A stretch of DNA of 44,829 bases, taken from the sequence record NC_042084.1; one strand, given 5' to 3'. The notes under the pieces were generated by a model that was not told the origin of the DNA, ran no database searches, and saw only the letters and a program-made list of their open reading frames with translations. Both the position numbers and the translations under genes were made by a program. Of this stretch, positions 8,701 to 42,150 are shown one piece after another (position 1 is the first letter of the stretch; each line of letters starts with the position of its first letter). This DNA is from Escherichia phage VB_EcoS-Golestan.

Positions 8701-8702
8701 AA

Positions 8703-14120: not shown

Positions 14121-14149
14121 ATAGTACGCTATTATATTGGGGTGTGCAA
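14121..14149 (-). promoter_or_regulatory. Family-1 promoter copy B (TTGCAC-N17-TACTAT) with inverted repeat AATAG-N4-CTATT (14120-14133)
   Basis: Near-identical to copies A, F and H; upstream of the accessory cassette. Confidence 0.5.
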
Positions 14150-14256
14150 GTAGTGTGCTAGAATAATTTTGCGCCTAGTGTCGCACACGAAAAGCGGGTG
14201 GTTCCCGTCTGGCGCATTTCCTTTAACCAGTAACCTCTTAACCAAAGGATTAAAGA

Positions 14257-14673: not shown

Positions 14674-14678
14674 ACGCG

Positions 14679-18788: not shown

Positions 18789-18791
18789 CTT

Positions 18792-24225: not shown

Positions 24226-24254
24226 AACTAAGGCCCCAAACGGGGCCTTTTCTC
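24226..24254. terminator. Bidirectional rho-independent terminator between tailspike and the convergent replication operon
   Basis: AAGGCCCC-AAAC-GGGGCCTT flanked by an A-run and a T-run. Confidence 0.6.
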
Positions 24255-24391
24255 TACTCTTCTGATAACTTCTCCAGTACAAACGCCAGTTGCGCATTAG
24301 CGGCGTCTCTTTGCTGGCGTAATCGTAGAACCTCTTCTTCAAGTTCCTTGATACGTTTTTGTAATGCCGGAATCGGGGCTATGATATTCAT
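24254..24391 (-). CDS. Small coiled-coil protein (46 aa)
   Basis: Hand-translated MNIIAPIPALQKRIKELEEEVLRLRQQRDAANAQ...; ATGA overlap with the upstream Toprim gene stop. Confidence 0.25.
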   Translation of the reverse strand: MNIIAPIPALQKRIKELEEEVLRLRQQRDAANAQLAFVLEKLSEE

Positions 24392-24903
24392 CTGGTAAAT
24401 TTCCTCGCAAGATACGTTATTTCTTCTTCACAAAGTTCATCGAGGTCGTTAGATACAAATCCTCTGGAGAATGTTCTGCTAAATTTTAAACCAGCTTTAT
24501 CATTATCCCCAGCGCACACCCAATCATACGGCAGAAGTGACATTTGCCGCCGTAGGTCAGTTGGTATATTCGACCCAAGTGCGCTTACGGCATTGAACCC
24601 GCAATTCATCAAAGCAACAGCTTTAAATATGCTTTCGGTAACAAATACTGTCCCACTTTCAGGAAGGTACTCCAACCCCCATAAACACGGCCTTGTTGTT
24701 CGGGTAAAGTACCGCGCGTCTTTAGGGTTTTTACAGTTCTTTTCAGCATGTGGCTTGTAATGCTGGTATCCTCGTAGCCTACCGTCAAAACCCCACAAGT
24801 AGAATGTAGCAACGCCAGGGGCTAAGACTACCTGGAGACGGTCTGCGTCAAAACCTCGTGACAGCAGATGCGCCTTAAGTAGTAACTCCTCGCCATCCAT
24901 CAT
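24388..24903 (-). CDS. Toprim-domain protein (DnaG-type primase catalytic-core-like)
   Basis: 171 aa; VTESIF (conserved Glu) and GDNDKAG (DxD) Toprim-like motifs. Confidence 0.45.
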   Translation of the reverse strand: MMDGEELLLKAHLLSRGFDADRLQVVLAPGVATFYLWGFDGRLRGYQHYKPHAEKNCKNPKDARYFTRTTRPCLWGLEYLPESGTVFVTESIFKAVALMNCGFNAVSALGSNIPTDLRRQMSLLPYDWVCAGDNDKAGLKFSRTFSRGFVSNDLDELCEEEITYLARKFTR

Positions 24904-26324
24904 TTCTTACCTCGTCTCTTCATGTAATTAAGCAACTCTTCCTGTACCGATTTCTTCTCGTCAGTACGTGTGGCAACAACCTCGTCCAGCGTGTCTTTAG
25001 CGACGATGTGATAGAGGAACACCGGTCGCTCGTGCCCCGCTTGTTTCTGGCGGACCGGGCCTATACGCTCAACAACCTGCAAATAGTGCTCAAGGTTCCA
25101 GCCTTGCGAGATGAACGCCAGATGATGACCCCCGTCCTGTAAATTCAAACCATGCCCGGCTGACGCAGGATGCACGCATAAAATCTCGATTTCCCCACGG
25201 TTCCACGCTTCCATCTGCTTATTACCCTTCGCACCTTTGGCAAATGCCTGGGCCTGCGGGAATCGCTTAAGGATGCGCTCCAGTTCGTGCTTGAACTGAT
25301 AGGCCACCAGTAACGGCGCGCCCTGTAACTCTTCCACAATGGACTCCAGTGCGTCCAGTTTCGTGTCGTGCACTTTCTCCCAGTCTTTGGTTGCTTCGCC
25401 GTCAGGGCCCGAAACATACACGGCACCGGAGGCAATCTGCAGACACTTCGACGTCTTCGCCGCAGCGTTAGCCGCTTCAACTTCTCCGCTTTCCAGTTCC
25501 GCGAATAGCTTCTCCTCCATATCGATGTACGCCTGACGTGCTTTCTTCGGCAGGTCGATTTCAACCGGCACGATAACAGGCGCTTCACAACCGAACCACT
25601 CGGCGGCGTCAATCGTCAGACTGATGTCCTTCATCTTCTGGTGAATCTCGTTATCTGCACCAGGGCGGGCGTGATATTCACGTGCCATCGCAGATTTTCC
25701 TTTCTGTACCGAATTAAACCAGCGGTCGGTGAATGCTGTATACGACGAACCTAGGCGCTCGCCAGCGTCGATAAACCAGTTCTGGCCCCACAAATCCTTG
25801 AGGCCGTTTGGTGACGGTGTACCAGTCAGGTTAATAAAACGCTTAACCCTTCCGAAAGCCACTTTACTAAGCGCCTTTGCACGCTTGCTACCACCTGAAC
25901 GGCTGCGGAATGATTTAAGCTTCGTGCTTTCATCTGCAACGATAACCGTAAAAGGCCAGTCGTCTTTGCCGTAGTAGTCAATCAGCCACTCGATAACCTC
26001 ATAGTTCGTGCAAACCACGTTAGCATCTGACTCCAGCGCCGCGATGCGGCGCTTCTCTGAACCAGTCGCATCTACAACACGCAGACATGGGAATTGCCAT
26101 TTCTCTTGCTCTGCAGGCCACGTACCAGACGCAACCCGCAGCGGGGCGAGGATTAACACGCGGTCGTCATCATTAAGTTGGCCGTTTCGGAACAGTCGGT
26201 TTAATGCCCACAGTACGCTGCCAGTCTTCCCAGCGCCCATGCTTGCCCATATGTTGCAGCGATGGTGCCGCAGCATGAACGAAGTCATGAGCTTTTGGTA
26301 CTCACGCCTTTGAAACTTACTCAT
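24900..26324 (-). CDS. SNF2/SF2-family helicase
   Basis: 474 aa; Walker A MGAGKTGS, DExx box VIVADEST, helicase C-terminal region. Confidence 0.8.
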   Translation of the reverse strand: MSKFQRREYQKLMTSFMLRHHRCNIWASMGAGKTGSVLWALNRLFRNGQLNDDDRVLILAPLRVASGTWPAEQEKWQFPCLRVVDATGSEKRRIAALESDANVVCTNYEVIEWLIDYYGKDDWPFTVIVADESTKLKSFRSRSGGSKRAKALSKVAFGRVKRFINLTGTPSPNGLKDLWGQNWFIDAGERLGSSYTAFTDRWFNSVQKGKSAMAREYHARPGADNEIHQKMKDISLTIDAAEWFGCEAPVIVPVEIDLPKKARQAYIDMEEKLFAELESGEVEAANAAAKTSKCLQIASGAVYVSGPDGEATKDWEKVHDTKLDALESIVEELQGAPLLVAYQFKHELERILKRFPQAQAFAKGAKGNKQMEAWNRGEIEILCVHPASAGHGLNLQDGGHHLAFISQGWNLEHYLQVVERIGPVRQKQAGHERPVFLYHIVAKDTLDEVVATRTDEKKSVQEELLNYMKRRGKK

Positions 26325-27246
26325 TTACCGCCCCCATGAATGCCTTTATAAATTCAGCAGCTACTTGCGGGACGATGGCATTGCCGTAACCGCGCAATCG
26401 TCCCACTCTGGCGGGTATCCCATCAGCCAGCGGGAATGTGCCGGGTTCAACTGGCCTGAATTTTCCATCCCGGCATCCGAGCCAGTCTGCCTCTGACCAG
26501 AAGCCGTGATGCGGATTGGTCGCGATATTTTCAGTCCCTGCTCCGTTGAGTAGTCCAGCCTGTCGAAAGTCCGGTCCTTTCCGTCCTTGCGAATCACTGT
26601 CTCTCCGCTCCCTCTGTAATCGTTCGCGGTCGGCGTCGCCCATGCCGTCATCGCGGCGGCCCACCCCAGTTTGTTCGGTTTCGTCCTGCCGTCTGTGCTG
26701 CGCATGTTCACGTCGTTTGTTATCAGTGATACTGCTGGCGTGGGCCAATCTATGCGCGCCGAAGAAAAGTCGGTCGCGTTTGTGCGGTGCGCCGACGCTA
26801 CAAGCTGGGAGTACGGCAAACCCGACGGCGTAGTTTTCTCCTTCCAGGTGAGTTTGTAAATCGCACATCCACGATTTTGCAATTGCTGGCGCAACCTGCT
26901 CCCCAAAGAGGACTGGAGGGCGGCACTCGCTGATGAGGTCGAGGAACACAGGTGCGAGGTGTCTCGGGTCGAACTGTCCGAGTTGCTTTCCCGCTGCGCT
27001 AAACGGTTGGCAAGGCGGGCTTCCCGTCCAGAGAGGCGCATCTTCCGGAACTCCCGCAAGTCTGAGCGCGAGAGGCCAGCCGCCGATACCAGCGAAAAAA
27101 TGACACTGGGTGAATCCGTCGAGGTCTTCTGGCTTAACTTCAGTAATGCTTCTTTCATCTACAACTCCAAAAGGTATGTGACCCTGTTTTATTAATTCAC
27201 GCAGCCACGCGGCTGCGCCTTTATCCCATTCGTTGTAATAGTTCAT
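26317..27246 (-). CDS. DNA (cytosine-5)-methyltransferase, orphan
   Basis: 309 aa; motif I FAGIGG, motif IV PPCQPFSAAGK, GEQV, C-terminal GNAIVP; no adjacent restriction endonuclease. Confidence 0.85.
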   Translation of the reverse strand: MNYYNEWDKGAAAWLRELIKQGHIPFGVVDERSITEVKPEDLDGFTQCHFFAGIGGWPLALRLAGVPEDAPLWTGSPPCQPFSAAGKQLGQFDPRHLAPVFLDLISECRPPVLFGEQVAPAIAKSWMCDLQTHLEGENYAVGFAVLPACSVGAPHKRDRLFFGAHRLAHASSITDNKRREHAQHRRQDETEQTGVGRRDDGMGDADRERLQRERRDSDSQGRKGPDFRQAGLLNGAGTENIATNPHHGFWSEADWLGCRDGKFRPVEPGTFPLADGIPARVGRLRGYGNAIVPQVAAEFIKAFMGAVNE

Positions 27247-27434
27247 TTTGCCACCAGAACTAACTCTTTACGCCCGAACGCCGTAACGTTACCGGTTACA
27301 TCTTCGATAACCAGTTTACCGTTCGACTCGACGTACACCGTATCAACGGCAACAGGCCGACGGGTCTTAACGTTGAAAATCATGTCGCCAGGTACGATGT
27401 CACGTGCTGGTTTGCGGTCATATTCGTGTTTCAT
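27243..27434 (-). CDS. Hypothetical protein (63 aa)
   Basis: First ORF downstream of family-2 promoter C; ATGA overlap with the methyltransferase gene. Confidence 0.4.
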   Translation of the reverse strand: MKHEYDRKPARDIVPGDMIFNVKTRRPVAVDTVYVESNGKLVIEDVTGNVTAFGRKELVLVAK

Positions 27435-27464
27435 TTCTCAATTCCTTATATTGTTGGTGTAGGA

Positions 27465-27752
27465 CTAACTATAATAGTTCGCTATTAGGGCGTCAACCTG
27501 TTTAAACGAACCAACGACAAAAACATTAGCACCACGCTTACGCATCCGCTCGTGCTCCCGTAACTGGTGTGGATCCGGCTTCGTGCTTTCGTCTTTCTTT
27601 ATCTCGACGAACCAGATGACGCCGCCGGGGAGAATTACCAGCAGGTCAGGGGCGCCGGAACGTCCTTCGTAGGAAAGTTTACGAACGAGGCCACCAATGG
27701 CCTCGAATCGGTCTTTTGCGTATTTCTGTATTTTGCCCTCAGGCGTACTCAT
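27465..27752 (-). CDS. VRR-NUC domain nuclease (PD-(D/E)xK); start set at ATG 27752
   Basis: PDLLVILPGG...FVEIKK motif; RBS GAGGGG before ATG 27752; ORF-track GTG start at 27788. Confidence 0.55.
   Translation of the reverse strand: MSTPEGKIQKYAKDRFEAIGGLVRKLSYEGRSGAPDLLVILPGGVIWFVEIKKDESTKPDPHQLREHERMRKRGANVFVVGSFKQVDALIANYYS
27468..27496 (-). promoter_or_regulatory. Family-2 promoter copy C (TTGACG-N17-TATAGT) with inverted repeat AATAG-N4-CTATT in the spacer (27473-27486)
   Basis: Near-identical to copies D and E; upstream of the methyltransferase/helicase operon. Confidence 0.55.
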
Positions 27753-27831
27753 CCACACACCCCTCACGTTTCGTATGCGCAATACCACAGCGCGGACAGA
27801 TCCGGCGGTCTTCTTCGTAGAACCAGTAAAT

Positions 27832-27963
27832 TTTCATTCCAGCACCCACAGATAAATTGTTACTAACATACCTAATACGGCAACCATCATGCCGTATTGA
27901 CCCTCGTGACAGTAGACACCGGCGGCGAATCCCGCCAGTACCGCAATAATCAGTTTACTTGGC
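27832..27963 (-). CDS. Small hydrophobic peptide (43 aa) overlapping the 3' end of the polymerase gene
   Basis: Hand-translated MPSKLIIAVLAGFAAGVYCHEGQYGMMVAVLGMLVTIYLWVLE; no clear RBS. Confidence 0.2.
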
Positions 27964-30219
27964 ATATCGCTTCATCTCCGCACCTTCAGCTACAAGAGGG
28001 AACCCCTCCGCCCATTCCGGCAATTCGCACATCAACCGCTCAAGCTCTGCTACATTGTATTCCGGTGAATCTGGTGTCTCGCAGATAATCTCATCGTGTA
28101 CGTGAAGTACAATCGGGTAGCCGTTTGCTTCTACGTTCAGCAGGGCATTAGCCAGCAAATCACGGCACAATGCCTGAGTGCAGTTTTCCACCAGTTTACC
28201 CGAGTAGGTGTACTGGAACCCCCACTGACGGGTTAGCTGATTTTCGCCCTGGTACTTAATGCGCACGTTAGTAGACACCTTCCCGTCTCCATCTGTTTCT
28301 TTCGACACGCTCAACCCGACGCCCGGATAAGACATAACGCGACCCGACGGCAACGTCATGCGCAACCACCAACCAGCGACTTTGTTGCCGTTGTTGTCCG
28401 TTTCTACGTTACGCGAAAACTTAACACCCCGCGGTCCCGCAGTGAACTCTTTACCTGGATTGCGGATAGCTGCCATAGCGGCGTCTTCAATATCCCGCCA
28501 GAACGCTACTGTTTCCGGGTGGGACTCGCGCCACATGCGCTTGATAGCGTCACAGGTACGCCACACTTTCTTATCAAGAATATACGATGGTCGGTCATCC
28601 TTTTCACCTGGCCGCGGAGGTCGCTTGGCTTCCTGAATACGTGCCCATTCATAGCCGCGTGCAGTAGCGGCCCATATATGGTCGGGGAATGTCCCGTCCA
28701 TTGTTTTTGCCATATCAACCAGGTTTAAGCCGAGGTTCTTAGCAAACTGAACGAAAGCACCGACACCACCAGCATAGCCAAGGCCCAATTCACATGCTTT
28801 ACCTATCTGGCGTAGGTCACTACGGCTTTCGAGAATGTAATCAGGGTCCATGCCGAACATCTTACCCGCGGTTACACAGTAAATATCCAATCCCGCACGG
28901 AAGGTATCGAGAGCGGTTTCTTCTCCCGCCAGCCATGCCAACCCGCGACCTTCAACGTTAGAGTAATCAGCTACGACAAACTTACGCCCGGCTTCCGGTA
29001 TGATGCAGCTACGCACCGTCGATGCCGTTAGCTTGGCTACATCGAAACGGCGATGCGCGCGGCCTTTAAACAACAGGTCGATTCCGTAGGACAATGGGTG
29101 TGTTACTCTCCACCAGTCCTTCTCTGACATCCAGTCATAACGTACTTTCTTCTTTTTATTCTTCGGGTCGTCATGATAGTACCCGCGCGCCAGGTTCTGT
29201 GGCTGGAAGCCTTTACCCGCGAACCGTAACGTACGCTTTGCCCCACCGTACTGGATACAACCGCGGCGTCGGTCGTCCGACGAGCGGCCTAACAGCAGCG
29301 GGTTATATTTCGTGGACGCTGTTGACGCGGCCCCGAGGCGCATTTCGATAATCGTGCGGGCGTCGTCAGGTAAATCATCATCGGCCAGCAGGTCATTCAG
29401 CGTCGACTTCTGTGCGTTGTGTATGCGGTGTGCGGGGGCCAGTTCACGTAGAATAGGCAGAAAGTCCTTACCGGTAAGCGAGCCGCCGTATTTACGTTGA
29501 GCTTCTTCCTGTAACTGTGCCTTGTGCTTCTCTACGGCTTCAATCGCGGCTTCCGCCAGTGCGACGTCAACCTTAAATCCGCGGTCGTTGATTAACTGGT
29601 CAAGTTCCAGTACACGGTCTTCGAACTCGGAGTTACCCCAACGCGGCAGCTTATGGAAGACTTCACGCATCGCAGTGATGTCGCTCACGGCGTACCTGAT
29701 GAACATCGCCCACTCGTCAGGGTGAGTTTCTGCGGTGTAGCGGCGGATTTTGTAGTTCTTCGGCGTCGGTTTAGAGAAACGCTTAATCAGAGCCTTGCCG
29801 CGTTTATCTTTCGCGTTGTCGGCGGATACACCCAGCACTTCGCACAGCGCATCAAGAGAACCCGGTAGCGCGTGACGAAACGCCCAAATCATAGTATCAA
29901 TGGTGTTGCTTACCGGAATATCAAAGCCCCAGCAGTGCTTCATGATGAGCCTATCGAAAAGTCCACCGTTGTGCCATACCATCTTAATGCGACTGTTTGG
30001 CTTAACCAGACGGCGTAGAGCGCGGTGTAAATCCACGGGCATATCACTGCCGTCGGTGCAATCCCATACCTGTACAGGCTCGTCGTCAAAAGCGTAGGTA
30101 CAGATAAGCACTTCGGTAGTTGGATGCTCGGCGTAAGCATAGGAGCCGACTTTCTTCAAATCGGCTTCGGAGAATGTTTCAAAGTCTAAGTAAAGCAATG
30201 TGTTCATAGTCTGTACCAC
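27955..30219 (-). CDS. Family A DNA polymerase with 3'-5' exonuclease domain
   Basis: 754 aa; Exo I LYLDFETFS; motif A DYSNVE, motif B RQIGKACELGLGYAG, motif C VHDE. Confidence 0.85.
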   Translation of the reverse strand: MVQTMNTLLYLDFETFSEADLKKVGSYAYAEHPTTEVLICTYAFDDEPVQVWDCTDGSDMPVDLHRALRRLVKPNSRIKMVWHNGGLFDRLIMKHCWGFDIPVSNTIDTMIWAFRHALPGSLDALCEVLGVSADNAKDKRGKALIKRFSKPTPKNYKIRRYTAETHPDEWAMFIRYAVSDITAMREVFHKLPRWGNSEFEDRVLELDQLINDRGFKVDVALAEAAIEAVEKHKAQLQEEAQRKYGGSLTGKDFLPILRELAPAHRIHNAQKSTLNDLLADDDLPDDARTIIEMRLGAASTASTKYNPLLLGRSSDDRRRGCIQYGGAKRTLRFAGKGFQPQNLARGYYHDDPKNKKKKVRYDWMSEKDWWRVTHPLSYGIDLLFKGRAHRRFDVAKLTASTVRSCIIPEAGRKFVVADYSNVEGRGLAWLAGEETALDTFRAGLDIYCVTAGKMFGMDPDYILESRSDLRQIGKACELGLGYAGGVGAFVQFAKNLGLNLVDMAKTMDGTFPDHIWAATARGYEWARIQEAKRPPRPGEKDDRPSYILDKKVWRTCDAIKRMWRESHPETVAFWRDIEDAAMAAIRNPGKEFTAGPRGVKFSRNVETDNNGNKVAGWWLRMTLPSGRVMSYPGVGLSVSKETDGDGKVSTNVRIKYQGENQLTRQWGFQYTYSGKLVENCTQALCRDLLANALLNVEANGYPIVLHVHDEIICETPDSPEYNVAELERLMCELPEWAEGFPLVAEGAEMKRYAK

Positions 30220-30482
30220 GTCTGATAGTCTGCTTCTGTGAGATGGTCGTCGCGATCTTGTTTCTTGTTTTTACCGCGTTCTATGATTTCTGCCCAAGTC
30301 CGGTCTGGGTCTGTGTCTTCTATTAAATGTTTATGCTCCTCGCATGCATAGTGTTTATACCAGTCTCGTACACCGTAAGCTGGAGGGTATTTAGTCATCC
30401 AAATTGCTCTAACTTTTTTACCTTCTGCCTTACAAAATTTGCAGTATGTGATGCGTCTGTATCTCTTAAGTTCCGCTGCCAT
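30204..30482 (-). CDS. Small zinc-finger-like protein
   Basis: 92 aa; CKFCK...CEEHKH Cys/His spacing; overlaps the polymerase start. Confidence 0.4.
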   Translation of the reverse strand: MAAELKRYRRITYCKFCKAEGKKVRAIWMTKYPPAYGVRDWYKHYACEEHKHLIEDTDPDRTWAEIIERGKNKKQDRDDHLTEADYQTWYRL

Positions 30483-30497
30483 TATTTTCGACCCTTA

Positions 30498-30522
30498 GTA
30501 AAAAGGCCCAATGAAGGGCCTT
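30498..30522 (-). terminator. Terminator/attenuator hairpin after the SSB-like gene
   Basis: AAGGCCC-loop-GGGCCTT with a U-run on the - strand (A5 on + strand at 30498-30502). Confidence 0.45.
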
Positions 30523-30541
30523 AGTTAAATTGATTCAGATA

Positions 30542-31171
30542 TTAGCGGCGGCGACGTTCGCGGCGCGGTGCTTCATCTTCTTCTTCGTCGTCTTCCAGGT
30601 CATTGACGCTCGCAGCGACTTTAGAACCGCCGAACGCTTTGCCTTCGCCAACGTATTTAATCGCCAGCAGGTTAACGCCGAGGACTTTATATTTCTGGCT
30701 GAACCAGATTTCTACGCTTACGTTAGCAACGCAGCCGCTGTAAACCTGTTCACCTTCAATCTGTTCACCGTCTACATTGAAGTCCTGCTCTACCTGAGTC
30801 TCGCCTTTTTTAGAGGTTACAATCAGCGGTTGTTTCTGTGCCTTCGCTTTGAAGTAGAAGCCTTCCGGGAAGTCTTCAAACGGATTGTCGCGCTCGGCAA
30901 TGTCTTTAATCGCGCATTTATCCATGTGCTTACCTTCACCGTAGTTGGACTTCATCCATTTCTCGGCAGCGGCTGCGCCTAACGCTTCTTCAACTACAGC
31001 GTAAACGGTGTCGTAGAGCGCATCGATTTGCGCATGGTCAGACGGCAGGATAATCGTTGCGCTGTACTGACCTTTAGTGATTGATCCATCGTCGTTTTCA
31101 CGGTCTTTTTCGCGTTCGAATACGTTAACCCAGGCAGTGTTTACTTTACGCAGATTTAATTTCAGTCCCAT
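30542..31171 (-). CDS. ssDNA-binding-like protein (DUF2815-like by context)
   Basis: 209 aa; acidic C-terminal tail DDEEEDEAP; adjacent to Cas4-like nuclease and polymerase; own strong promoter and terminator. Confidence 0.45.
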   Translation of the reverse strand: MGLKLNLRKVNTAWVNVFEREKDRENDDGSITKGQYSATIILPSDHAQIDALYDTVYAVVEEALGAAAAEKWMKSNYGEGKHMDKCAIKDIAERDNPFEDFPEGFYFKAKAQKQPLIVTSKKGETQVEQDFNVDGEQIEGEQVYSGCVANVSVEIWFSQKYKVLGVNLLAIKYVGEGKAFGGSKVAASVNDLEDDEEEDEAPRRERRRR

Positions 31172-31184
31172 TTGATTTCTCGCT

Positions 31185-31202
31185 TTTCAGTTTCAGTTTC
31201 AG
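31185..31202. repeat. Tandem hexamer (TTTCAG)3 in the 5' UTR of the SSB-like gene
   Basis: Direct read: TTTCAGTTTCAGTTTCAG followed by TTTACT. Confidence 0.8.
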
Positions 31203-31235
31203 TTTACTCCGGGATCTGCCCGGCCAGTGATTAGA

Positions 31236-31264
31236 ACTATAATAGCTAACTATTCATGTGTCAA
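31236..31264 (-). promoter_or_regulatory. Family-2 promoter copy D (TTGACA-N17-TATAGT) with inverted repeat AATAG-N4-CTATT in the spacer (31241-31254)
   Basis: Consensus -35 and near-consensus -10; near-identical to copies C and E. Confidence 0.6.
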
Positions 31265-31483
31265 ATAAAATTTTGCAATAGGGATTATGTTCTCGAAATT
31301 AAGCATATTGGCCGGTTCGAACTCATCCTCTACAGGGTAGTATCGCATCATGGTACCGTTCAAGAACGTGAACGATTCCGAGTGTAGATACCCATCCCAG
31401 CGCCATACCATCAAAAAATCTTTATCAGTCGGCATTTCATTTACTTGAATCATTCTAAATCCTCCTCTGTAACTTGATTCCAC
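31250..31483 (-). CDS. Hypothetical protein
   Basis: 77 aa ORF, coupled to the upstream nuclease gene; start uncertain. Confidence 0.35.
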   Translation of the reverse strand: MESSYRGGFRMIQVNEMPTDKDFLMVWRWDGYLHSESFTFLNGTMMRYYPVEDEFEPANMLNFENIIPIAKFYLTHE

Positions 31484-32691
31484 TCAGGACGTTTGTCATC
31501 CGCCGTTGCGACGCATGGCGCACCGGGCTTACGGGTAATGAAGTCTTTCAGTTCTTCTTCCGGTACAATTTTAACCGCTTCGGTCGGTGTCATAAGAACT
31601 ACCTTTTGCAGCATAGTACCGTACTTCTCGAATACTGCATCGGTATCTTTCCACGCACGATTACCCGGGCGTCCTTCAACCAACTTGTAACCAGGAACTT
31701 TCTTACCTGAATGCAACGCGGCCGCCATAGCTTTCTCAACCTTGTCGATGTGCTGGCGCAACAGCGGCAACTTCTCATACTCAGCTACGAGTTGCTCCGG
31801 CGTCAGTTCCAGCACAAAGTCGTCTTCCAGTTCTTCCGCCAGTACAGAATTAACCGTCTTTGTACGCGCAGCGCATTGTTCAGAGAACCGGCACCACTGA
31901 CAACCATCTACCGATGGCTTGAAGTCCGACGCTTTCAGGTTCTTCTTGCCACGGAAATACGCATCAAGCGCTAACAGCGCGCGTTTCTGTGCGAACTTAG
32001 CGAACAGTTCCAGTCCTTCAACCGAGATGTCCCACTCTGTCGCACCCCCAGCGTAAGGCTGGAAGATGACCAGACGAACGGTTGTTATGTTATAACGTCT
32101 CTTGAGTCGACGATAAACACCGAGAGCGTAAAGCATAAGCTGCTTGTTTTCTTTCGCTTCGACGCGATGCCGCCCGGTTTTCAGGTCGCCGATAATGAGC
32201 ATGTGCTCGTCGGTGTTTGCCAGTTCCTGGACAGCAACGAGGTCAGCGGTTCCGAACGTCTCAACGCCTTCATACCCCGGATGCAATACCTCAGTAAGAT
32301 TAACACGCATTTCCAGCTTGGCGTAAGTCGCTATATCGATAATCGCCTTGCAGTAGTCGGTGTACTTGCGCACCTGCTCAATCATGTCCGCCGTAATCAG
32401 TACCGCGCCTTTCATCGGGCTGATTAGTGCCTTAATCTGGCCTTTGCCTTCATCCAGCACGTAAGCACCGACTTCACGCTCTAACGGCAGCGCAGTTCCG
32501 CGAATATAAGCGTTGAGATGGACCTCAGCTATGGTGTGCATTGCCGTGCCTAATACAGCGGCTTTACCTGGCGTGTTAGGGATATCTTTTTCACAGGCCA
32601 GTGATGCCGCGCAACTTAGCCACTTTTTAGCCCCTGACGGCGACAGTAAGGCATGTACATCGTTATTGCCGCCGCGTTCTTTAAGAATCAT
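31450..32691 (-). CDS. Cas4-like PD-(D/E)xK recombination exonuclease with Fe-S cysteines (DUF2800-like)
   Basis: 413 aa; RecB-nuclease motif IIGDLKTGRHR...QLMLYALG; N-terminal Cys pair plus C-terminal CQWCRFSEQC. Confidence 0.65.
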   Translation of the reverse strand: MILKERGGNNDVHALLSPSGAKKWLSCAASLACEKDIPNTPGKAAVLGTAMHTIAEVHLNAYIRGTALPLEREVGAYVLDEGKGQIKALISPMKGAVLITADMIEQVRKYTDYCKAIIDIATYAKLEMRVNLTEVLHPGYEGVETFGTADLVAVQELANTDEHMLIIGDLKTGRHRVEAKENKQLMLYALGVYRRLKRRYNITTVRLVIFQPYAGGATEWDISVEGLELFAKFAQKRALLALDAYFRGKKNLKASDFKPSVDGCQWCRFSEQCAARTKTVNSVLAEELEDDFVLELTPEQLVAEYEKLPLLRQHIDKVEKAMAAALHSGKKVPGYKLVEGRPGNRAWKDTDAVFEKYGTMLQKVVLMTPTEAVKIVPEEELKDFITRKPGAPCVATADDKRPEWNQVTEEDLE

Positions 32692-33050
32692 CGTAAACTC
32701 TCCAAATACAAGTTTAATGCCTGTAACTGTTCTTCTGTAGGAATGAAAGAATCATCGCGATGTAAGTCGCTTAACTGTTGCAACATTCCTGCGAACTGAC
32801 GTCTTGCGTCAACAGCGTCCATGTGATGCTTTTCACTTTTATATATTAATGTTTTCGGGTAATCCTCAAGCCTGCCAGACGATTTATTCACGCGGAGCGC
32901 ACGAGCTTCATGCACAATGTGAATGTACTTTTTGCCGTTTTGTAACACAGTAGCTACGCCGCTGCTCTTTCTGCGGTCGCCGACTGTGTAAACCTTGTCG
33001 CCACTACGCAGATTAAGCCACCATTTATCGGTCATACCCTGTTCTCCCAC
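32688..33050 (-). CDS. Hypothetical protein
   Basis: 120 aa; ATGA coupling to downstream gene. Confidence 0.4.
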   Translation of the reverse strand: MGEQGMTDKWWLNLRSGDKVYTVGDRRKSSGVATVLQNGKKYIHIVHEARALRVNKSSGRLEDYPKTLIYKSEKHHMDAVDARRQFAGMLQQLSDLHRDDSFIPTEEQLQALNLYLESLR

Positions 33051-33304
33051 TGGTCAATTAAATGTCGTGTCTGGTGCTGGCAGTGCATGGCCCAGCTATA
33101 CATCGACTCGAAGACATAAAAGTCAGGCTTGGCAAAAGTCGTGCGCTTAATCTGCGACACGTGACGGCCTATATCTTTGGGCCTGGGTACTTTGCCTAAG
33201 TACGCCATCTCTTCCATCTGGTGCGCACCGGAAGGAGCGCGCAATAGCCATAGAGCCTCCGTGTTATCCCGTCGGTCAATACCTCGGTAGAGTTGGTAAA
33301 TCAT
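33032..33304 (-). CDS. Hypothetical protein
   Basis: 90 aa. Confidence 0.4.
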   Translation of the reverse strand: MIYQLYRGIDRRDNTEALWLLRAPSGAHQMEEMAYLGKVPRPKDIGRHVSQIKRTTFAKPDFYVFESMYSWAMHCQHQTRHLIDQWENRV

Positions 33305-33346
33305 ATTACGACCCTCTGTTAAAGCGGCCCGAAGGCCGCGGGATAG

Positions 33347-33850
33347 TTATTCTTCTTCGAAATACTTGTTCTTGATTGCCGTCAGGCGTTCAAGGTACTC
33401 GGGCAGGTCTTCATCTTTAATCGCGGCAATCTTCATTTTCTTACCGGTGAACTCCTCCAGCAGTTCATCGGAATCGTCGCACGCAGCATCGCTAGGACCT
33501 TCGTTAATTGCATCGTCGATAGCCTGAATCTGGTCACGAAGAGACTGGTAATCGACCTCTTCTTTCTCTTCTTCTGGTTCTGGAGTCGGCTCCTCTACTT
33601 TAGCTTTACGCGGCTTGCGTTTCGGCTTCTCTTCTTCTTCTGCTGGTTTAGCGTCAACGATGTCTTCACCTTCAACAGGGATTTCTTTTGTTGCTTCTTT
33701 TTCGCACTCAGCTACCGCTTCTTTGGTATACACTACCGTCTCTACTTCTAACGGCGCTGCAACTTGTGCTGACTGTTTCGCACTGTTCGCAGCAATCAGT
33801 TCATGTGCAACTACGAAACGTTCCAGTAATTTTAAGAATTGTTCTAACAT
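33347..33850 (-). CDS. Highly acidic coiled-coil protein
   Basis: 167 aa; long Glu/Asp/Pro/Lys-rich stretch (EEEKPKRKPRKAKVEEPTPEPEEEKEE). Confidence 0.45.
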   Translation of the reverse strand: MLEQFLKLLERFVVAHELIAANSAKQSAQVAAPLEVETVVYTKEAVAECEKEATKEIPVEGEDIVDAKPAEEEEKPKRKPRKAKVEEPTPEPEEEKEEVDYQSLRDQIQAIDDAINEGPSDAACDDSDELLEEFTGKKMKIAAIKDEDLPEYLERLTAIKNKYFEEE

Positions 33851-33872
33851 TTGTTTCTCCTGTTTATTTAGG

Positions 33873-34100
33873 TTACTCGCCGTCGCCTTCTGTAAGGCTA
33901 TCGTCTATTAATTCAAATTTACCGTTTGAGTGTTGGATAGCTTCTTGCCCGCAATGGTCGCAAACCACCAGTTTATCGAATCCGTCAAACTCGTCCCCGA
34001 CTACGCAAGAAAGTACAAATTTATGTTTTGTACATACTTCTTGCGGTGCGCCGAAAATTGCGTGAAAACATTTAGTTATAGCTCCAGTGATTATGTTCAT
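33873..34100 (-). CDS. Small Cys-rich (zinc-ribbon-like) protein
   Basis: 75 aa; C...C...CDHC arrangement; RBS GAGAGGTGA; first gene after family-2 promoter E. Confidence 0.4.
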   Translation of the reverse strand: MNIITGAITKCFHAIFGAPQEVCTKHKFVLSCVVGDEFDGFDKLVVCDHCGQEAIQHSNGKFELIDDSLTEGDGE

Positions 34101-34128
34101 ATCTTCACCTCTCGTTTGGTATGGGTTA

Positions 34129-34157
34129 ACTATAATAGCGAACTATTCACATGTCAA
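34129..34157 (-). promoter_or_regulatory. Family-2 promoter copy E (TTGACA-N17-TATAGT) with inverted repeat AATAG-N4-CTATT (34134-34147); a second half-site ACTATTCACAT repeats at 34186-34196
   Basis: Near-identical to copies C and D; divergent from the Cro-like gene. Confidence 0.6.
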
Positions 34158-34221
34158 TGGGCTTTTCTAAAATAATTAATATGGTACTATTCACATATCA
34201 ACTAACTAAGGAGTAGCTGAC

Positions 34222-34437
34222 ATGCAACCATCTGAACTAGGCATTCGTGTAGAACAACGCCGTAAAGAACTCGGCATCTCCCAGCGCCGTCTGGCGGTCC
34301 TGACCGGCGTTTCCCAGGGCGCAATTAACCAGCTGGCTCTCGGTGTAACTCAGGACGTCCGCCCGGCAACGTTGTTTAAACTGGCGGAAGTGCTGGAAGT
34401 AGACGCTAAGTGGCTGGCGTTCGGTGAAGGGGCTTGA
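34222..34437 (+). CDS. Cro/C1-type (XRE family) helix-turn-helix transcriptional regulator
   Basis: 71 aa; ELGISQRRLAVLTGVSQGAINQL is a classic HTH; RBS AAGGAG; terminator overlaps the stop. Confidence 0.7.
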   Translation: MQPSELGIRVEQRRKELGISQRRLAVLTGVSQGAINQLALGVTQDVRPATLFKLAEVLEVDAKWLAFGEGA

Positions 34438-34454
34438 CGCCCCTTTCTTTTTAT
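34427..34454 (+). terminator. Rho-independent terminator
   Basis: AAGGGGC-TTGAC-GCCCCTT hairpin followed by TTCTTTTTATT. Confidence 0.6.
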
Positions 34455-34648
34455 TGCACCTTTATCGGGTATCTTTTGCGAAACTTACCTAACCCGCAGT
34501 ACACGCTGTAAGCCTCTGTGTAACTGAACACAACATGATACCCGCGCCCATAAGGAACTACGTTAAGAACTTCTACTACTTCGCCTCTGTGGTTGGTGTA
34601 TTTATTACCTTTCAGTTCGTCGCTTACTTCTTTAAATTTACCGCTCAT
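34451..34648 (-). CDS. Hypothetical protein
   Basis: 65 aa; ATGA coupling to the upstream primase gene. Confidence 0.4.
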   Translation of the reverse strand: MSGKFKEVSDELKGNKYTNHRGEVVEVLNVVPYGRGYHVVFSYTEAYSVYCGLGKFRKRYPIKVQ

Positions 34649-36906
34649 TCCAAATCCTCCTCTGTCACTGTCAACATTTCATTCGGTTCGTATATTGTCT
34701 TTGGAATCTTGTTATCGTTTATGCCCCACGGCAGTCGATATTGCTTAGGTATAGGCCTGTTGTTGTTATCCAGCCCAGAGACGATAACTCCCGCCTCGTG
34801 CATCTCTTCCAGTTTCTTTCGAAGGTCGTTATTAGCGTTAATTGGTACGCCGTAACTATCCTCTTTCGCGGCTTTGACGATAGCGGACATAGAAAACCCG
34901 CGCTTGTCGTCGCCCTGCTCCTGCAATTTACCCAACGCGTAAATAACCGTAGCCTCTTTGGTGTCCAGTTTCTCGAACTGACCTACCTTTTCTTTAACGG
35001 CTTCCTTCTGTTCGTCGGTCATACCTTCTACTTTCTTCACGAAGACAGAGAAGGCGTTAAAGTTAACAAAGACATCGATGTGCGGATTTCCCGCGTCAAA
35101 ATCTCGTACATCGTCACTACTATACCCTTCCGGAAGCCCCATGAAGTTGTGAGTTGGTTCTTTCTTTTCCGGTGGCTCCGCTATCTGAATCTTCTGTATT
35201 ACGAATCCTCTGGCTTTCTGCCGTTCTCCGTTTCGGTTCTTTATGTGATACAGGTTTATCTCTAAGTTATTGTCGTTGTCCGGCTTATGCAGGAACATCC
35301 CATTATCAATGGAGTTGTGAAAGTCGCTTCCACCCTTCGGCATCATGCCGTTTTCAGACGGCACAGTTTCGTCGATGTTTTTAGTCGGGTGCACCATAGC
35401 GCCGACCGCGGCGTTAAGCGTCGACGCTATTTCGTTAAGCGCCTGCGCCGCTTCTTTCATCGACCTGTTGTCGTTCTCGTCGAAGCCAGGTATGCAAGTT
35501 TGTAGGGTATCAAACGTAACCTTTACAATTTTCTCTTCACCGGCAACACGGCGCATCATTCTTACTGCCCGGCGGCGCCACACCTCATCGAGTAAGTTAC
35601 ACCCATCCGCAACACAATCGATAATGTGCAAGCGGTCAAGGTTGTCACCGAGGGCGATTTGCAAAGACTTTTTATGACGCTCGAACGACTGTGCACCTTC
35701 ACCGGCGAAAATGAACGCATGTCCTTCCGCGACCTCCGCCCCACCGAACGCATATCTTTTTTCGGAGGCAATAGCGGCGTCAATCGCCATGCTAAATGTT
35801 GACTTACCGGTGTGGGACTTTGCGCAAATGTAGAATGATTCGTTAGTCTGCATAAGGCCGTCTACGACGGAGTAAGCAGGTTCTTTTTCAACTTCCGGCT
35901 CGTCTTCGAGGTCTTCCAGCGTGCAAGTTACAGGCTCCTCGTTCTCTGTGCGATGCAGTTCTTCAACCTCTTCGTCCGGTAAATCAGGCAAAGCCGCACG
36001 AATGCTGTTAATACTGATAGGTTGCTTGTCTACGTTAAGCTCGTCCGGAAGGCCGCACATACGCAGGGCTAGATGTTGCCGGCGGTTAAGCTCGGTACAA
36101 GCGCCATTGTTTGTGTGCTGGCAGACAAAGCGCACTTCTTTACCGTCAAGCATGATGCTGGTGGAGCCTTTACCGGTGTGCAGGTGTTCGTTAGGGCAGG
36201 GCACTTCGTACCCGCGCCCGGAAGATAAAGCGTCAAGTCCAAGCTCCGCTTCGCAGAAATGCGCTATATCTGCGTTAAGCCCATGCTCATCAGCGGCAAG
36301 TGTCTTAGCTTCACGTTTACGCAACCCCATCTCTTCGGCTTTCTTGATGTACCGCTCCGCACGGATAACACGCCCTTCTGTAACCGTTATCTTCGACTCT
36401 CTATGCGGCAGGTAGATAAGGCGGTTGCCGTCTTCTGTGCAGTGGTCACGCAATGCCTCGTCTATTTCTAACTCTGCACAAATAGCCCGTTGCACCATCC
36501 ACGCATCGTTAGAGTTAAACGGCGTGCGAGCCGGAACCAGAACGCGGAAGGCGTAATCACCGTTTTTACACGCGTGCTGATGGGATGCCGTTGTGTGTAG
36601 AATATTGAAGAACGGCGCGTTCTTGAATTTGCGGGTAAGGTCGCGGTACTGAGTACGGTTGAGATGGTCGAAGTCAAACTTAACCACACTGTCTTCCAGA
36701 ATCGCGTTTTTACGGCGACCCCCAACGGGGGCGATAGCCTTCTGCTTAATCTTGGCAGCGTCGTACTCTTCCTTAGTCCATGACGGGTCTACGGACAGAC
36801 GCTTCGATGTATCGCAGACATATTCTACGAACTGCTCCAGCGGCATTTCACGCGCTACAGGGTTTTTATCGAATGTGTTGCGCAGCGTTGCAAAAACAAT
36901 ATTCAT
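34645..36906 (-). CDS. Primase/helicase-type replication protein (RepA/AAA_25-like P-loop ATPase)
   Basis: 753 aa; Walker A AKSHTGKST; Cys cluster; largest gene of the replication operon. Confidence 0.6.
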   Translation of the reverse strand: MNIVFATLRNTFDKNPVAREMPLEQFVEYVCDTSKRLSVDPSWTKEEYDAAKIKQKAIAPVGGRRKNAILEDSVVKFDFDHLNRTQYRDLTRKFKNAPFFNILHTTASHQHACKNGDYAFRVLVPARTPFNSNDAWMVQRAICAELEIDEALRDHCTEDGNRLIYLPHRESKITVTEGRVIRAERYIKKAEEMGLRKREAKTLAADEHGLNADIAHFCEAELGLDALSSGRGYEVPCPNEHLHTGKGSTSIMLDGKEVRFVCQHTNNGACTELNRRQHLALRMCGLPDELNVDKQPISINSIRAALPDLPDEEVEELHRTENEEPVTCTLEDLEDEPEVEKEPAYSVVDGLMQTNESFYICAKSHTGKSTFSMAIDAAIASEKRYAFGGAEVAEGHAFIFAGEGAQSFERHKKSLQIALGDNLDRLHIIDCVADGCNLLDEVWRRRAVRMMRRVAGEEKIVKVTFDTLQTCIPGFDENDNRSMKEAAQALNEIASTLNAAVGAMVHPTKNIDETVPSENGMMPKGGSDFHNSIDNGMFLHKPDNDNNLEINLYHIKNRNGERQKARGFVIQKIQIAEPPEKKEPTHNFMGLPEGYSSDDVRDFDAGNPHIDVFVNFNAFSVFVKKVEGMTDEQKEAVKEKVGQFEKLDTKEATVIYALGKLQEQGDDKRGFSMSAIVKAAKEDSYGVPINANNDLRKKLEEMHEAGVIVSGLDNNNRPIPKQYRLPWGINDNKIPKTIYEPNEMLTVTEEDLE

Positions 36907-37031
36907 TTCTTTTTCTCCGCACGTTCTAAGGCTTCCTGCATACGACGCATTGCGCGGTTCATCTTTACCGGTGCGAAGAAATCAGCGCCATGTTTCTGGC
37001 GGCGTAGCTGTGGAACTATTAACTTCGACAT
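36903..37031 (-). CDS. Small basic protein (42 aa) translationally coupled to the primase gene
   Basis: Hand-translated MSKLIVPQLRRQKHGADFF...; RBS AAGGA; ATGA overlap with primase start. Confidence 0.25.
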   Translation of the reverse strand: MSKLIVPQLRRQKHGADFFAPVKMNRAMRRMQEALERAEKKK

Positions 37032-37081
37032 TGTATAATCCTTGTGCTTACTTTGATGATTTGTGCTTTAGCCCCGACGTT

Positions 37082-37315
37082 CTAGCGTTGGGGTTTCTTT
37101 TGCCTACGTGCCGCATTAATCCACTCTCCTTCGCTCTGGTAGAAACTGCAATCAAGAATATCCTCTATAGAAAATTTAACTATTTTAGTGGGTCCACAAA
37201 AGTTATAAGGGAAAAGTTCTACATAACACCCATCGTCGGTTATATTTGACGCAATCTTGAAATAATATTTAATGCTGTCGTCTTCACGGAAGCTACAACC
37301 CATACGCCCAATCAT
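37082..37315 (-). CDS. Hypothetical protein
   Basis: 77 aa; ATGA coupling to the upstream HTH gene. Confidence 0.4.
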   Translation of the reverse strand: MIGRMGCSFREDDSIKYYFKIASNITDDGCYVELFPYNFCGPTKIVKFSIEDILDCSFYQSEGEWINAARRQKKPQR

Positions 37316-37500
37316 TTCACGTTCTCCTTAATCCACGCTTCAACTTTATTACGGTCAAATGTTCCTGGTAAACGGCGCCCCATAACTTTAATACAGCAGT
37401 CAGGGAATTTACCACTGCGTAACCAGTTATTAATTGTCTGACGTGTTACCCCGATACGTTCTGCTACTTCATTCTGGGTCATGTAATGTTGCATTTTCAT
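37312..37500 (-). CDS. AlpA/excisionase-like helix-turn-helix DNA-binding protein; start set at ATG 37500
   Basis: MTQNEVAERIGVTRQTINNWLRSGKFP HTH; RBS AGGAG before ATG 37500; first gene of the - strand replication operon. Confidence 0.55.
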   Translation of the reverse strand: MKMQHYMTQNEVAERIGVTRQTINNWLRSGKFPDCCIKVMGRRLPGTFDRNKVEAWIKENVK

Positions 37501-37601: not shown

Positions 37602-37630
37602 TTGACTTTTACTAAAAAATATGGTAAGCT
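37602..37630 (+). promoter_or_regulatory. Sigma70-type promoter TTGACT-N17-TAAGCT with extended -10 TG (paralog of 4980-5008)
   Basis: Near-identical to the 4980 promoter; followed by the same leader. Confidence 0.6.
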
Positions 37631-37633
37631 CAG

Positions 37634-37690
37634 CCTGAGCTTGTGAAGTATGAACAAGCGACCGCGGCGCGCGGCAGGCGAAACGAGCAC
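37634..37690 (+). other. Conserved promoter-proximal leader element, copy 2
   Basis: 38 nt identical to 5012-5049, then similar but diverged sequence. Confidence 0.5.
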
Positions 37691-37799
37691 GTGTAGCGTG
37701 TGGAGTGAGGCTCGCTAGCGCGTTTGGGAGGCCCAAAGTCTATTGTAAATCCCACCTAAATATCTAAGTTACTGATTTGCCGTAGGTCAGAACCGCAAG

Positions 37800-37826
37800 C
37801 TCACTCACTCACTCACTCACTCACTC
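37800..37826. repeat. Tetranucleotide microsatellite (CTCA)6 followed by hairpin GGTGCC-TTCG-GCACC (37831-37846)
   Basis: Direct read: CTCACTCACTCACTCACTCACTCACTC. Confidence 0.9.
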
Positions 37827-37910
37827 TTGGTGCCTTCGGCACCACGTTCGTTTCGTTTCGCTCGCCATCCCATTAAACGAAAGAATCACAACGGCAACGT
37901 AACTATTCTC

Positions 37911-37939
37911 TTGCACACCCCAACATAATAGGATACTAT
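37911..37939 (+). promoter_or_regulatory. Family-1 promoter copy F (TTGCAC-N17-TACTAT) with inverted repeat AATAG-N4-CTATT (37927-37940)
   Basis: Near-identical to copies A, B and H; upstream of the small-gene block starting at 37975. Confidence 0.5.
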
Positions 37940-37974
37940 TCACTTATCGAAACGAGACAGAGGAGTGAGGGTTA

Positions 37975-38763: not shown

Positions 38764-38952
38764 ATGAGCGAGTGGATTAAGTGTAGCGAGCGGATGCCGG
38801 AGCCTTATGAATACGTTCTTGTAACTGATGGTTTTGTCGGTTGTGAGGTTATGCGTGTTAATTCAGATGGCTACTGGGGACCAGCGAAGAGTTTATATCA
38901 CGGTGATATCTCCCACTGGATGCCCTTACCTGAGCCACCGGCGCCGGTGTAA
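38764..38952 (+). CDS. DUF551-like small phage protein
   Basis: 62 aa; N-terminal MSEWIKCSERMPE pattern recalled as typical of DUF551. Confidence 0.45.
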   Translation: MSEWIKCSERMPEPYEYVLVTDGFVGCEVMRVNSDGYWGPAKSLYHGDISHWMPLPEPPAPV

Positions 38953-38997
38953 CAGGGGGTATAACAGGTCAATAGGTTACTATTTTACTGAGTGACT

Positions 38998-39036
38998 TAC
39001 GCTGCTACACAGCAGCGTATCATTTTTCTCATTTTT
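38998..39036 (+). terminator. Rho-independent terminator
   Basis: TACGCTGCT-ACAC-AGCAGCGTA hairpin followed by TCATTTTTCTCATTTTTG. Confidence 0.55.
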
Positions 39037-39112: not shown

Positions 39113-39141
39113 TTGCACACTAAGATAGAATAGGCTACTAT
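39113..39141 (+). promoter_or_regulatory. Family-1 promoter copy H (TTGCAC-N17-TACTAT) with inverted repeat AATAG-N4-CTATT (39129-39142)
   Basis: Near-identical to copies A, B and F. Confidence 0.5.
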
Positions 39142-39157
39142 TCATTTACACCAACGA

Positions 39158-42100: not shown

Positions 42101-42121
42101 TCTATTTTCGGTAATGACTAG

Positions 42122-42150
42122 TTGACTATTACCCTCGACCCTATTATATT
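42122..42150 (+). promoter_or_regulatory. Promoter TTGACT-N17-TATATT
   Basis: Good -35/-10 with 17-bp spacer about 35 nt upstream of the ORF at 42184; shares CCCTATTATATT with family-1 region A. Confidence 0.5.

Follow-up and report, generated by a model that had tools for sequence, protein, structure and literature searches.

A Cro-like gene and a genome-wide 14-bp promoter palindrome in Escherichia phage VB_EcoS-Golestan: a candidate lytic-cycle regulon

The genome of Escherichia phage VB_EcoS-Golestan (NC_042084.1; 44,829 bp, analysed at its full length and called the window from here on) carries, between positions 34129 and 34454, a gene for a small Cro-like protein that diverges from a leftward promoter. 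We found that the repeat shared by the two promoters of this locus is a 14-bp palindrome, AATAG-N4-CTATT, which recurs at about ten other core promoters genome-wide, at least eight of them in the same two registers, so the region is one node of a phage-wide regulon and not a self-contained bistable switch. The original prediction had proposed a switch acting in the lytic cycle; the lytic regulatory role stands, as neither a CI-type repressor nor an integrase is encoded, while the self-contained switch does not. We favour, with modest confidence and from sequence comparison, the Cro-like protein as the best candidate for binding this palindrome. The set of operator-like sites appears to be undescribed in the literature that we searched. 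By megablast, the phage belongs to the genus Kagunavirus (Guernseyvirinae) and has several hundred relatives with Escherichia and Salmonella as hosts.

A 14-bp palindrome within sigma-70-type core promoters

Two copies of ACTATTCACAT had been described at the locus as half-sites. Both copies exist, at 34142 and 34186, and are part of a 25-nt repeat (34133-34157 and 34177-34201; 84% identity, period of 44 bp), but their status as half-sites did not hold. Allowing two mismatches, the 11-mer has 14 matches in the window against 9.6 expected, which is no enrichment, and relatives do not conserve the CACAT at its 3' end. The core that they do conserve is part of a longer pattern, TATAATAG-N3-ACTATTCA (11 matches, 0.24 expected), which contains the true unit, the 14-bp palindrome. 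This dyad has 13 matches with at most one mismatch against 1.13 expected, a number reached in none of 100 shuffled sequences, and nearly all 13 lie within sigma-70-type core promoters. Eight copies are perfect (starting at 4884, 14120, 27473, 31241, 34134, 37927, 38971, and 39129), six of them wholly non-coding and the remaining two at the 3' ends of coding sequences, and those with one mismatch include 34178 and 42117.

The palindrome occurs in two registers. In the first family of promoters (TTGCAC-N10-dyad), the -10 hexamer TACTAT corresponds to positions 8 to 13 of the dyad, as seen at 4889(-), 14125(-), 37935(+), and 39137(+). In the second (TTGACA-N4-dyad-ATAGT), the dyad lies in the spacer, ahead of a TATAGT -10, and the promoters run leftward from 27496, 31264, and 34157. 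The register relative to the -10 is shifted by 6 bp between the two families, which implies that the dyad is not an element defined by RNA polymerase.

The family 1 sites all lie over the -10 of a TTGCAC-17-TACTAT promoter: AATAGTACCCTATT (4884-4897; leftward, genes 4756-4857 and 4415-4759), AATAGTACGCTATT (14120-14133; leftward, with an Imm-like gene and a phosphoesterase and kinase block), AATAGGATACTATT (37927-37940; rightward, small-gene cluster from 37974), and AATAGGCTACTATT (39129-39142; rightward, genes from 39173). The family 2 sites are AATAGCGAACTATT (34134-34147), a perfect copy in the spacer of the leftward promoter of the Cro-like locus (PL), AATAGCTAACTATT (31241-31254), in the spacer of a leftward TTGACA-17-TATAGT promoter upstream of an SSB-like gene, and AATAGTTCGCTATT (27473-27486), in that of a leftward TTGACG-17-TATAGT promoter; the promoters of the last two (31264->31236 and 27496->27468) are paralogous to PL and share its layout. 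The second site of the Cro-like locus, AATATGGTACTATT (34178-34191), overlaps the -10 of the gene's own promoter (Pcro) in the family 1 register, without the TTGCAC -35, and all of its 14 positions are invariant among relatives. Its sole deviation from the consensus (G5->T, AATAT for AATAG) provides the T of the TG of an extended -10. In promoter coordinates, the dyad spans about -25 to -12 at PL and about -19 to -6 at Pcro. Two sites fall outside both families: AATAGGTTACTATT (38971-38984), between the gene at 38764-38952 and a terminator at 38998-39019, has no clear -35, and ACTAGTTGACTATT (42117-42130), with one mismatch, lies over the -35 of a rightward TTGACT-17-TATATT promoter preceding genes from 42184, with an orthologous site in Jerseyvirus. 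Separately, a perfect 16-bp palindrome, AACTATTCGAATAGTT (4966-4981), contains the same half-sites in inverse order (CTATT-CG-AATAG); it lies directly upstream of the -35 of a putative small-RNA promoter and overlaps it.

The selection acting on the dyad was assessed in an alignment of 27 sequences, the window and 26 Kagunavirus loci from IMG/VR, to which all statements about 27 relatives refer. The half-sites at 34134, 31241, and 37927 together make up 30 columns, all of them invariant, against 9 variable columns among the 12 central ones. All 33 IMG/VR loci of the Kaguna type have a perfect copy of site 1 of the locus (34134) at the same position, about 88 nt ahead of the start of the Cro-like gene. 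At the level of the sequences, fixed half-sites with free centres in two registers is the pattern of a dimeric DNA-binding protein and not that of RNA polymerase recognition.

This footprint also bears on a different explanation, in which the palindrome would be an intrinsic promoter feature (opposed -10-like hexamers or a spacer favoured by sigma-70) that multiplied as promoter cassettes were duplicated, and the Cro-like protein would act at other places or have only a marginal effect. The right half-site does overlap or abut the -10 in every case (CTATT within TACTAT, or CTATT followed by ATAGT), the promoters of each family are paralogous well past the palindrome, including the family 1 5' untranslated regions (UTRs), and the dyad variants of the genus Cornellvirus track a change of the -10 from TACTAT to TAATAT. 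Against it, the left half-site AATAG falls at -25 to -21 or at -19 to -15, where sigma-70 makes no base-specific contacts, and is nevertheless invariant in the 27 genomes while the inner four bases vary. The same dyad is kept in both registers, the copy at 38971 has no recognisable -35, and polymerase recognition leaves the dyad symmetry itself unexplained. We regard this explanation as improbable.

The Cro-like protein and its gene

The Cro-like gene (34222-34437, + strand) codes for a protein of 71 aa, deposited as "helix-turn-helix domain-containing protein" (UOL50938.1). Its assignment to the XRE/Cro-type helix-turn-helix (HTH) proteins, made originally from the translation, was borne out by three comparisons. 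It belongs to Pfam HTH_3 (score of 47.2 bits, cut-off of 23 bits; E = 2.3e-12; residues 11 to 65), and its best sequence match in the PDB is 434 Cro, which is also 71 aa long (40% identity over 63 residues, E = 2e-6). An AlphaFold2 model, computed from the single sequence and of moderate confidence (mean pLDDT of 81.5), predicts five helices (residues 5-16, 21-28, 32-39, 48-57, and 62-66), and its top Foldseek match in the PDB is 2cro (TM-scores of 0.73/0.79, 38% identity), which suggests a 434 Cro-type fold. Relatives have this gene annotated as Cro, DicA, XRE, or repressor, so the gene as such was already known, and the literature searched holds annotations and one RNA sequencing (RNA-seq) paper, with no functional study of the gene or of the dyad.

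Other assignments were considered and set aside. A DicA-type repressor requires about 135 aa and a C-terminal oligomerisation region, and the protein here consists of the HTH domain only. The Rac DicA (L082) is 42% identical over the HTH but has another recognition helix (VAHVTISQ) and another intergenic dyad, which also disfavours mimicry of DicA in the silencing of cryptic prophages. DicA-type operators are of the TGTTAG...CTAACA type and lie between dicA and dicC. An XRE antitoxin (HipB/HigA/MqsA-like) would be expected next to a co-transcribed toxin; the unit here is monocistronic, both neighbours are on the opposite strand, and the MqsA match (E = 0.08) is below threshold.

The gene is widely conserved. 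In the 27 Kagunavirus orthologues, 11, 2, and 49 columns vary at the first, second, and third codon positions, a pattern that indicates strong purifying selection, and a single G33S is the only change in the recognition helix SQGAINQL. Jerseyvirus and Cornellvirus have homologues of about 50% and about 40% identity, respectively, in the corresponding position beside the leftward replication genes, and together with a fourth, metagenomic lineage the gene is kept in more than 500 phage records. More distant homologues (L055 and L056) lie in unrelated gene contexts. In one Jerseyvirus-type record (L059 10001-10165; IMGVR_UViG_638275545_000001), an apparent 1-nt insertion shifts the frame of the gene with the palindromes intact, a sign of either a naturally occurring knockout or a mistake in the sequencing of this old record.

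That the gene should be expressed during infection had been set beforehand as a point on which the prediction could fail, and its orthologue is indeed transcribed. In the temporal RNA-seq study of the Kagunavirus vB_Eco_K1B4, gene 004 ("specific DNA binding"; 3386-3601, + strand, 216 nt), the lone + strand gene between a minus-strand gene and the primase, belongs to the middle class (PMC12645636).

These data also bear on the idea that the gene is a leftover of the immunity region of a temperate ancestor, or a moron, with no role in the lytic cycle. The characterised proteins nearest to its product are of the Cro, CI, and DicA types and come from temperate phages, and the gene stands alone in opposite orientation to its surroundings, as a remnant might. 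A remnant fits poorly with its retention in three genera and a fourth lineage under strong purifying selection, with its transcription during infection, and with the absence of any trace of neighbouring lysogeny genes or prophage copies. In addition, conservation is stronger in its promoter and 5' UTR than at synonymous sites: in the 27 relatives, 13 of 70 columns are variable from TGTCAA (the -35 of PL) to the ATG, compared with 49 of the 71 third positions of codons in the gene beside them. We consider a remnant very improbable.

Candidate binders of the palindrome

Among the small proteins scanned, the Cro-like protein is the sole member of HTH_3, a family in which the proteins of solved structure recognise dyads as dimers. 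The 14-bp dyad is also the geometry of the operators of 434 Cro and repressor. The thirty other small proteins scanned gave no HTH match, with the exception of a sub-threshold NinH and of a second small HTH protein (37312-37500, - strand; 62 aa), which is excisionase/MerR-like by Pfam (HTH_17) and PHROGs and is the rival candidate binder.

Comparison among lineages points toward the Cro-like protein. Cornellvirus Shemara codes for the Cro-like protein and has no HTH_17 homologue; AATAG-N4-CTATT does not occur in its genome, and TATTA-N6-TAATA dyads, with the fuller form TATTAG-N4-nTAATA, occur eight times against about 1.1 expected, the perfect ones overlapping the -10 TAATAT of sigma-70-like promoters. 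The fourth lineage, a 5.7-kb metagenomic contig (L096), codes for a Cro-like protein with 44% identity and the recognition helix TQGGIGHI, and has AATAC-GACG-CTATT in the PL spacer and AATAC-TACG-GTATA over the -10 of Pcro. These variants indicate that a dyad of the form AWTAS-N4-STAWT accompanies the Cro-like gene in all four lineages. Scans of IMG/VR and of metagenomes yielded no other independent lineage represented by sufficient sequence.

Several observations weigh against the Cro-like protein as the binder. The recognition helices of Kagunavirus (SQGAINQL) and Jerseyvirus (SQSLITHL) differ at three of the four DNA-facing positions, yet both genera share TAATAG, and the Jerseyvirus helix is nearer to that of Cornellvirus (TQSAISHL), whose dyad differs; no clean code of covariation between recognition helix and half-site emerged across the lineages. 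The perfect AATAG palindrome has the phyletic distribution of the HTH_17 protein, both occurring only in Kagunavirus and Jerseyvirus. The Cornellvirus sites are heterogeneous, several of them being asymmetric (ATTAG-N4-GTATT) and A/T-rich, and part of the dyad signal in that genus could be generic promoter composition. Last, the K1B4 RNA-seq is coarse (eight time points, three classes), places the replication genes among both middle and late genes, and alone shows no shut-off (PMC12645636).

Some of these points are what would be expected if the palindromes were operators for another factor, whether the early HTH_17 protein, a protein of the host, or one of the phage that escaped recognition. 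In that case the Cro-like gene would itself be under the control of that factor and have its own target elsewhere, for example at 34158-34177 or in the conserved 5' UTR. The HTH_17 protein is 82% identical between Kagunavirus and Jerseyvirus, the genera with the same half-site and between which the Cro-like helix changes, and its own promoter (TTGCTT-17-TATACT) has no palindrome, as expected of a regulator made before its targets are controlled. Its orthologue in K1B4 (gene 008, 6308-6490, - strand) is among just four early genes (PMC12645636). The co-occurrence of HTH_17 and dyad in these two genera is nevertheless a single phylogenetic event of little weight, and both Cornellvirus, without an HTH_17 homologue, and the L096 contig keep dyads of the same architecture. 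HTH_17 (excisionase/MerR-like) domains of 62 aa that lack a dimerisation region are usually monomer binders and do not recognise 14-bp dyads, and we know of no host regulator with this dyad consensus, both of which count against such a factor. Overall, we consider another factor unlikely, although deserving of more weight than a formality.

Proposed mechanism in the lytic cycle

With the Cro-like protein as the binder, the arrangement probably serves, by a narrow judgement, as a negative feedback, Cro-only and CI-less, on the extent or timing of early and middle transcription during a strictly lytic cycle, and not as a bistable switch. At DNA entry, the host sigma-70 polymerase would fire the strong family 1 and family 2 promoters, and the Cro-like protein would build up more slowly, made from the monocistronic transcript of Pcro, a presumably weak promoter lacking a -35. 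Its dimers, with the geometry of 434 Cro, would then occupy the perfect dyads within the core promoters and block RNA polymerase, so that the rising level of the protein would throttle early and middle promoters genome-wide. Its own promoter would be repressed last, resulting in negative autoregulation; the operator at Pcro would be filled last because it carries the one mismatch (G to T), at the very base that makes the TG of the extended -10.

A broader version of this proposal is more tentative, and we put it slightly short of an even chance. In it, the Cro-like protein would, without a CI counterpart, serve as master repressor for virtually all strong promoters of the early and middle classes across the strictly virulent Guernseyvirinae; it would act through one 14-bp dyad in two registers, and its own promoter would escape longest by the TG-making mismatch.

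Organization of the divergent locus

The transcription signals of the locus agree closely with what had been read from the sequence. PL (34129-34157, - strand), from which the Cro-like gene had been said to diverge, is a near-consensus sigma-70-type promoter of family 2, with TTGACA (34157->34152), a 17-nt spacer, and TATAGT (34134->34129), matching 11 of 12 consensus positions. Both hexamers are invariant in relatives, and the promoter is predicted to drive the gene at 33873-34100 and the replication and recombination genes downstream. This first gene of the leftward unit (- strand) codes for a 75-aa protein (phrog_32657) with no Pfam match.

On the other strand, the extended -10 of Pcro, TGGTACTAT (34182-34190, TGG followed by TACTAT), was confirmed as the gene's own putative promoter, its nine bases being invariant in 27 of 27 Kagunavirus sequences. 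It conforms to the sigma-70 extended -10 definition, in which TGn directly precedes a hexamer with A as its second and T as its sixth base and the -35 is dispensable, and the hexamer 17 nt upstream is CTTTTC, so it appears to lack a recognisable -35. The same TACTAT hexamer serves the family 1 promoters at 4889, 14125, 37935, and 39137. Between the two promoters, the stretch GGGCTTTTCTAAAATAATTA (34158-34177) is constrained in the 27 relatives and is possibly an UP-like element or a surrogate -35 for Pcro. A Shine-Dalgarno sequence, AAGGAG (34208-34213, + strand), lies 8 nt before the ATG, has one substitution among the 27 relatives, and is annotated as a ribosome-binding site in relatives.

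The two dyads of the locus are 44 bp apart, and 44 or 45 bp in relatives owing to a 1-nt indel, so helical phasing is not conserved. No second, antagonistic regulator arranged divergently, as in lambda, was found at the locus. Two further promoter candidates lie within it: a + strand TTCACA-16-TAAAAT (34146-34173), whose -35 differs in sequence and has an indel in relatives, and a second leftward match of the promoter scan, TTGATA-18-AATTAT (34201-34172).

The terminator attributed to the Cro-like transcript (34426-34454, + strand) likewise proved sound, and it works one way. It overlaps the stop codon and has an 8-bp stem with five GC pairs; the hairpin (34426-34446; -13.3 kcal/mol) is followed on the + strand by the U tract UCUUUUUAUU, as in rho-independent terminators, and when read on the - strand by CACCGAACGCC, without a U tract. 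As the U tract is found on the + strand only, the terminator is expected to act on the rightward transcript only, and leftward transcripts of the primase operon would run antisense across the Cro-like gene. A terminator is annotated at the matching place in the relatives Schulenburg and Shelanagig.

Lifestyle and gene neighbourhood

The deposited annotation comprises 78 genes, with 6.4% of the genome non-coding, and no integrase or CI is found among them, in agreement with the original prediction. A search of 5,426 complete E. coli genomes for prophage copies of the Cro-like locus gave none, and Kagunavirus is reported to be strictly lytic. The lack of CI, integrase, and prophage relatives in a strictly lytic genus excludes a lysogeny switch and makes a lytic-cycle regulatory role the sensible reading. 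The single match in those genomes is a spacer of a CRISPR (clustered regularly interspaced short palindromic repeats) array. This 33-nt spacer, 100% identical to window 34153-34185, is located in an iap-adjacent type I-E array of strain 2017.09.02CC (NZ_AP025214.2, 4038667-4038699). Its protospacer lies in the invariant stretch between the -35 of PL and the -10 of Pcro, and the ATG at 34151-34153 before it is an I-E-type protospacer adjacent motif.

The Cro-like gene had been singled out as the only + strand gene of a - strand block, and it is the sole + strand coding sequence of the block, which spans 24254-37500. In Cornellvirus Shemara (L006 19930-22769, compared with window 34451-37500), the Cro-like gene is followed by one small + strand gene, a terminator, and the primase/helicase genes. 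The primase segment is inverted in Kagunavirus and Jerseyvirus, so that the Cro-like gene stands by itself there and converges with this segment, and the order in the L096 contig is apparently of the Cornellvirus type.

Few promoters are found in the structural region (window 1-20000), with 9 sigma-70-like matches against 17.9 in shuffled sequence and no strong one on the + strand; possibilities for late-gene transcription are read-through from the promoter at 42122 or an unrecognised type of late promoter. The Rfam int-alpA RNA (RF02996) has a match at window 14168-14232 (+), just over its gathering threshold (36.6 bits against 35.8, E = 4.7e-4), within the intergenic region that separates the 14125 promoter from the divergent tail assembly chaperone gene.

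The two largest intergenic regions contain paralogous units of about 200 nt (4980-5215 and 37603-37850, both + strand; 77% identical), each with a sigma-70-like promoter (TTGACT-17-TAAGCT), followed by a structured body rich in GC and by a hairpin terminator (5190-5209 and 37828-37844). The copy at 37603-37850 also has a (CTCA)n microsatellite at about 37797-37822. These units contain no open reading frame and are candidate phage small RNAs, with no Rfam match at the gathering threshold. The 9-mers AACGGCAAC and ACGGCAACA are the most repeated words in this genome and in Shemara (up to 11 copies, mostly coding; 10 of 11 on one strand in Shemara), and related 9-mers rank among the most repeated in Shelanagig. 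They may be driven by codon or peptide usage or represent a Chi-like signal.

Implications

Of the small siphoviruses, Kagunaviruses and Jerseyviruses rank with those most frequently put forward for phage therapy and for use as chassis in synthetic biology. Labels such as repressor, Cro, or DicA raise a question about the safety of these phages as lytic agents, which is answered by a lytic-cycle regulator with a probable 14-bp operator and no CI, integrase, or prophage relatives. What the analysis adds is the recognition that the supposed half-sites belong to a selected, genome-wide family of 14-bp operators within sigma-70 core promoters, and the result is a testable map of transcription control, whose compact set of repressible promoters and candidate cognate 71-aa repressor could possibly be reused as parts. 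If true, the broader proposal of a master repressor would amount to a minimal genome-wide timing circuit based on Cro only, with the half-site variants AATAG, ATTAG, and AATAC as a natural specificity series. In scientific terms, the findings would carry the Cro paradigm a small step further, into a lineage that is obligately virulent, and are not a new principle.

Comparison with known systems

The criteria of a bistable CI/Cro switch do not describe this locus, as there is no CI, no integrase, and the operators are single instead of triplets. A functional Cro role, consisting of operator binding and repression of early promoters, is proposed, and the candidate operators are under selection. 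The protein has much in common with 434 Cro. Both have 71 aa, with 40% identity, a five-helix fold, and a Gln opening the recognition helix, and, as in 434, the candidate operators are 14-bp dyads in which the four central bases vary among sites and genomes, placed over the cores of divergent promoters. The predicted role, turning down early promoters in lytic growth, would also be shared. Unlike 434, the phage has no CI partner, no OR1-3/OL1-3 triplets, no PRM, and no lysogeny, its half-site is AATAG instead of ACAA (ACAA-N6-TTGT), and its sites are single and spread over about ten promoters genome-wide instead of clustered at two loci.

Other systems share single traits. Among virulent phages that retain Cro-like/XRE genes, there are for example cos-type phages of Streptococcus thermophilus that keep cro-like and ant genes after the loss of CI and integrase, in a recognisable remnant of the lysogeny module. 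They resemble this phage in having a Cro-type gene without CI or integrase in an obligate lytic phage, and differ in that here no module remnant is found and the gene lies within the replication block and is conserved subfamily-wide. The controller proteins of restriction-modification systems (C.AhdI, C.BclI), which are among the structural neighbours, are also small HTH_3 dimers that bind dyads over their own promoter with concentration-dependent autoregulation; however, their C-boxes are of the GACT...AGTC type, and no restriction gene is linked here. A controller of the phage cytosine methyltransferase was also considered and rejected, as Jerseyvirus Shelanagig has no methyltransferase and keeps the regulator and the palindromes.

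P1 C1, with many monovalent operators, and gp71 of mycobacteriophage L5, with its "stoperators", are repressors that maintain lysogeny through asymmetric sites. In both, as in this phage, near-identical sites are scattered genome-wide at or near promoters, which implies one regulator for many units; the phage studied here differs in being virulent, in having symmetric dyads as sites, and in its candidate, a Cro-type HTH_3 protein unrelated to those repressors. In sequence, fold, and proposed action the closest known system is 434 Cro, and in the distribution of its sites it is P1 C1 and L5 gp71.

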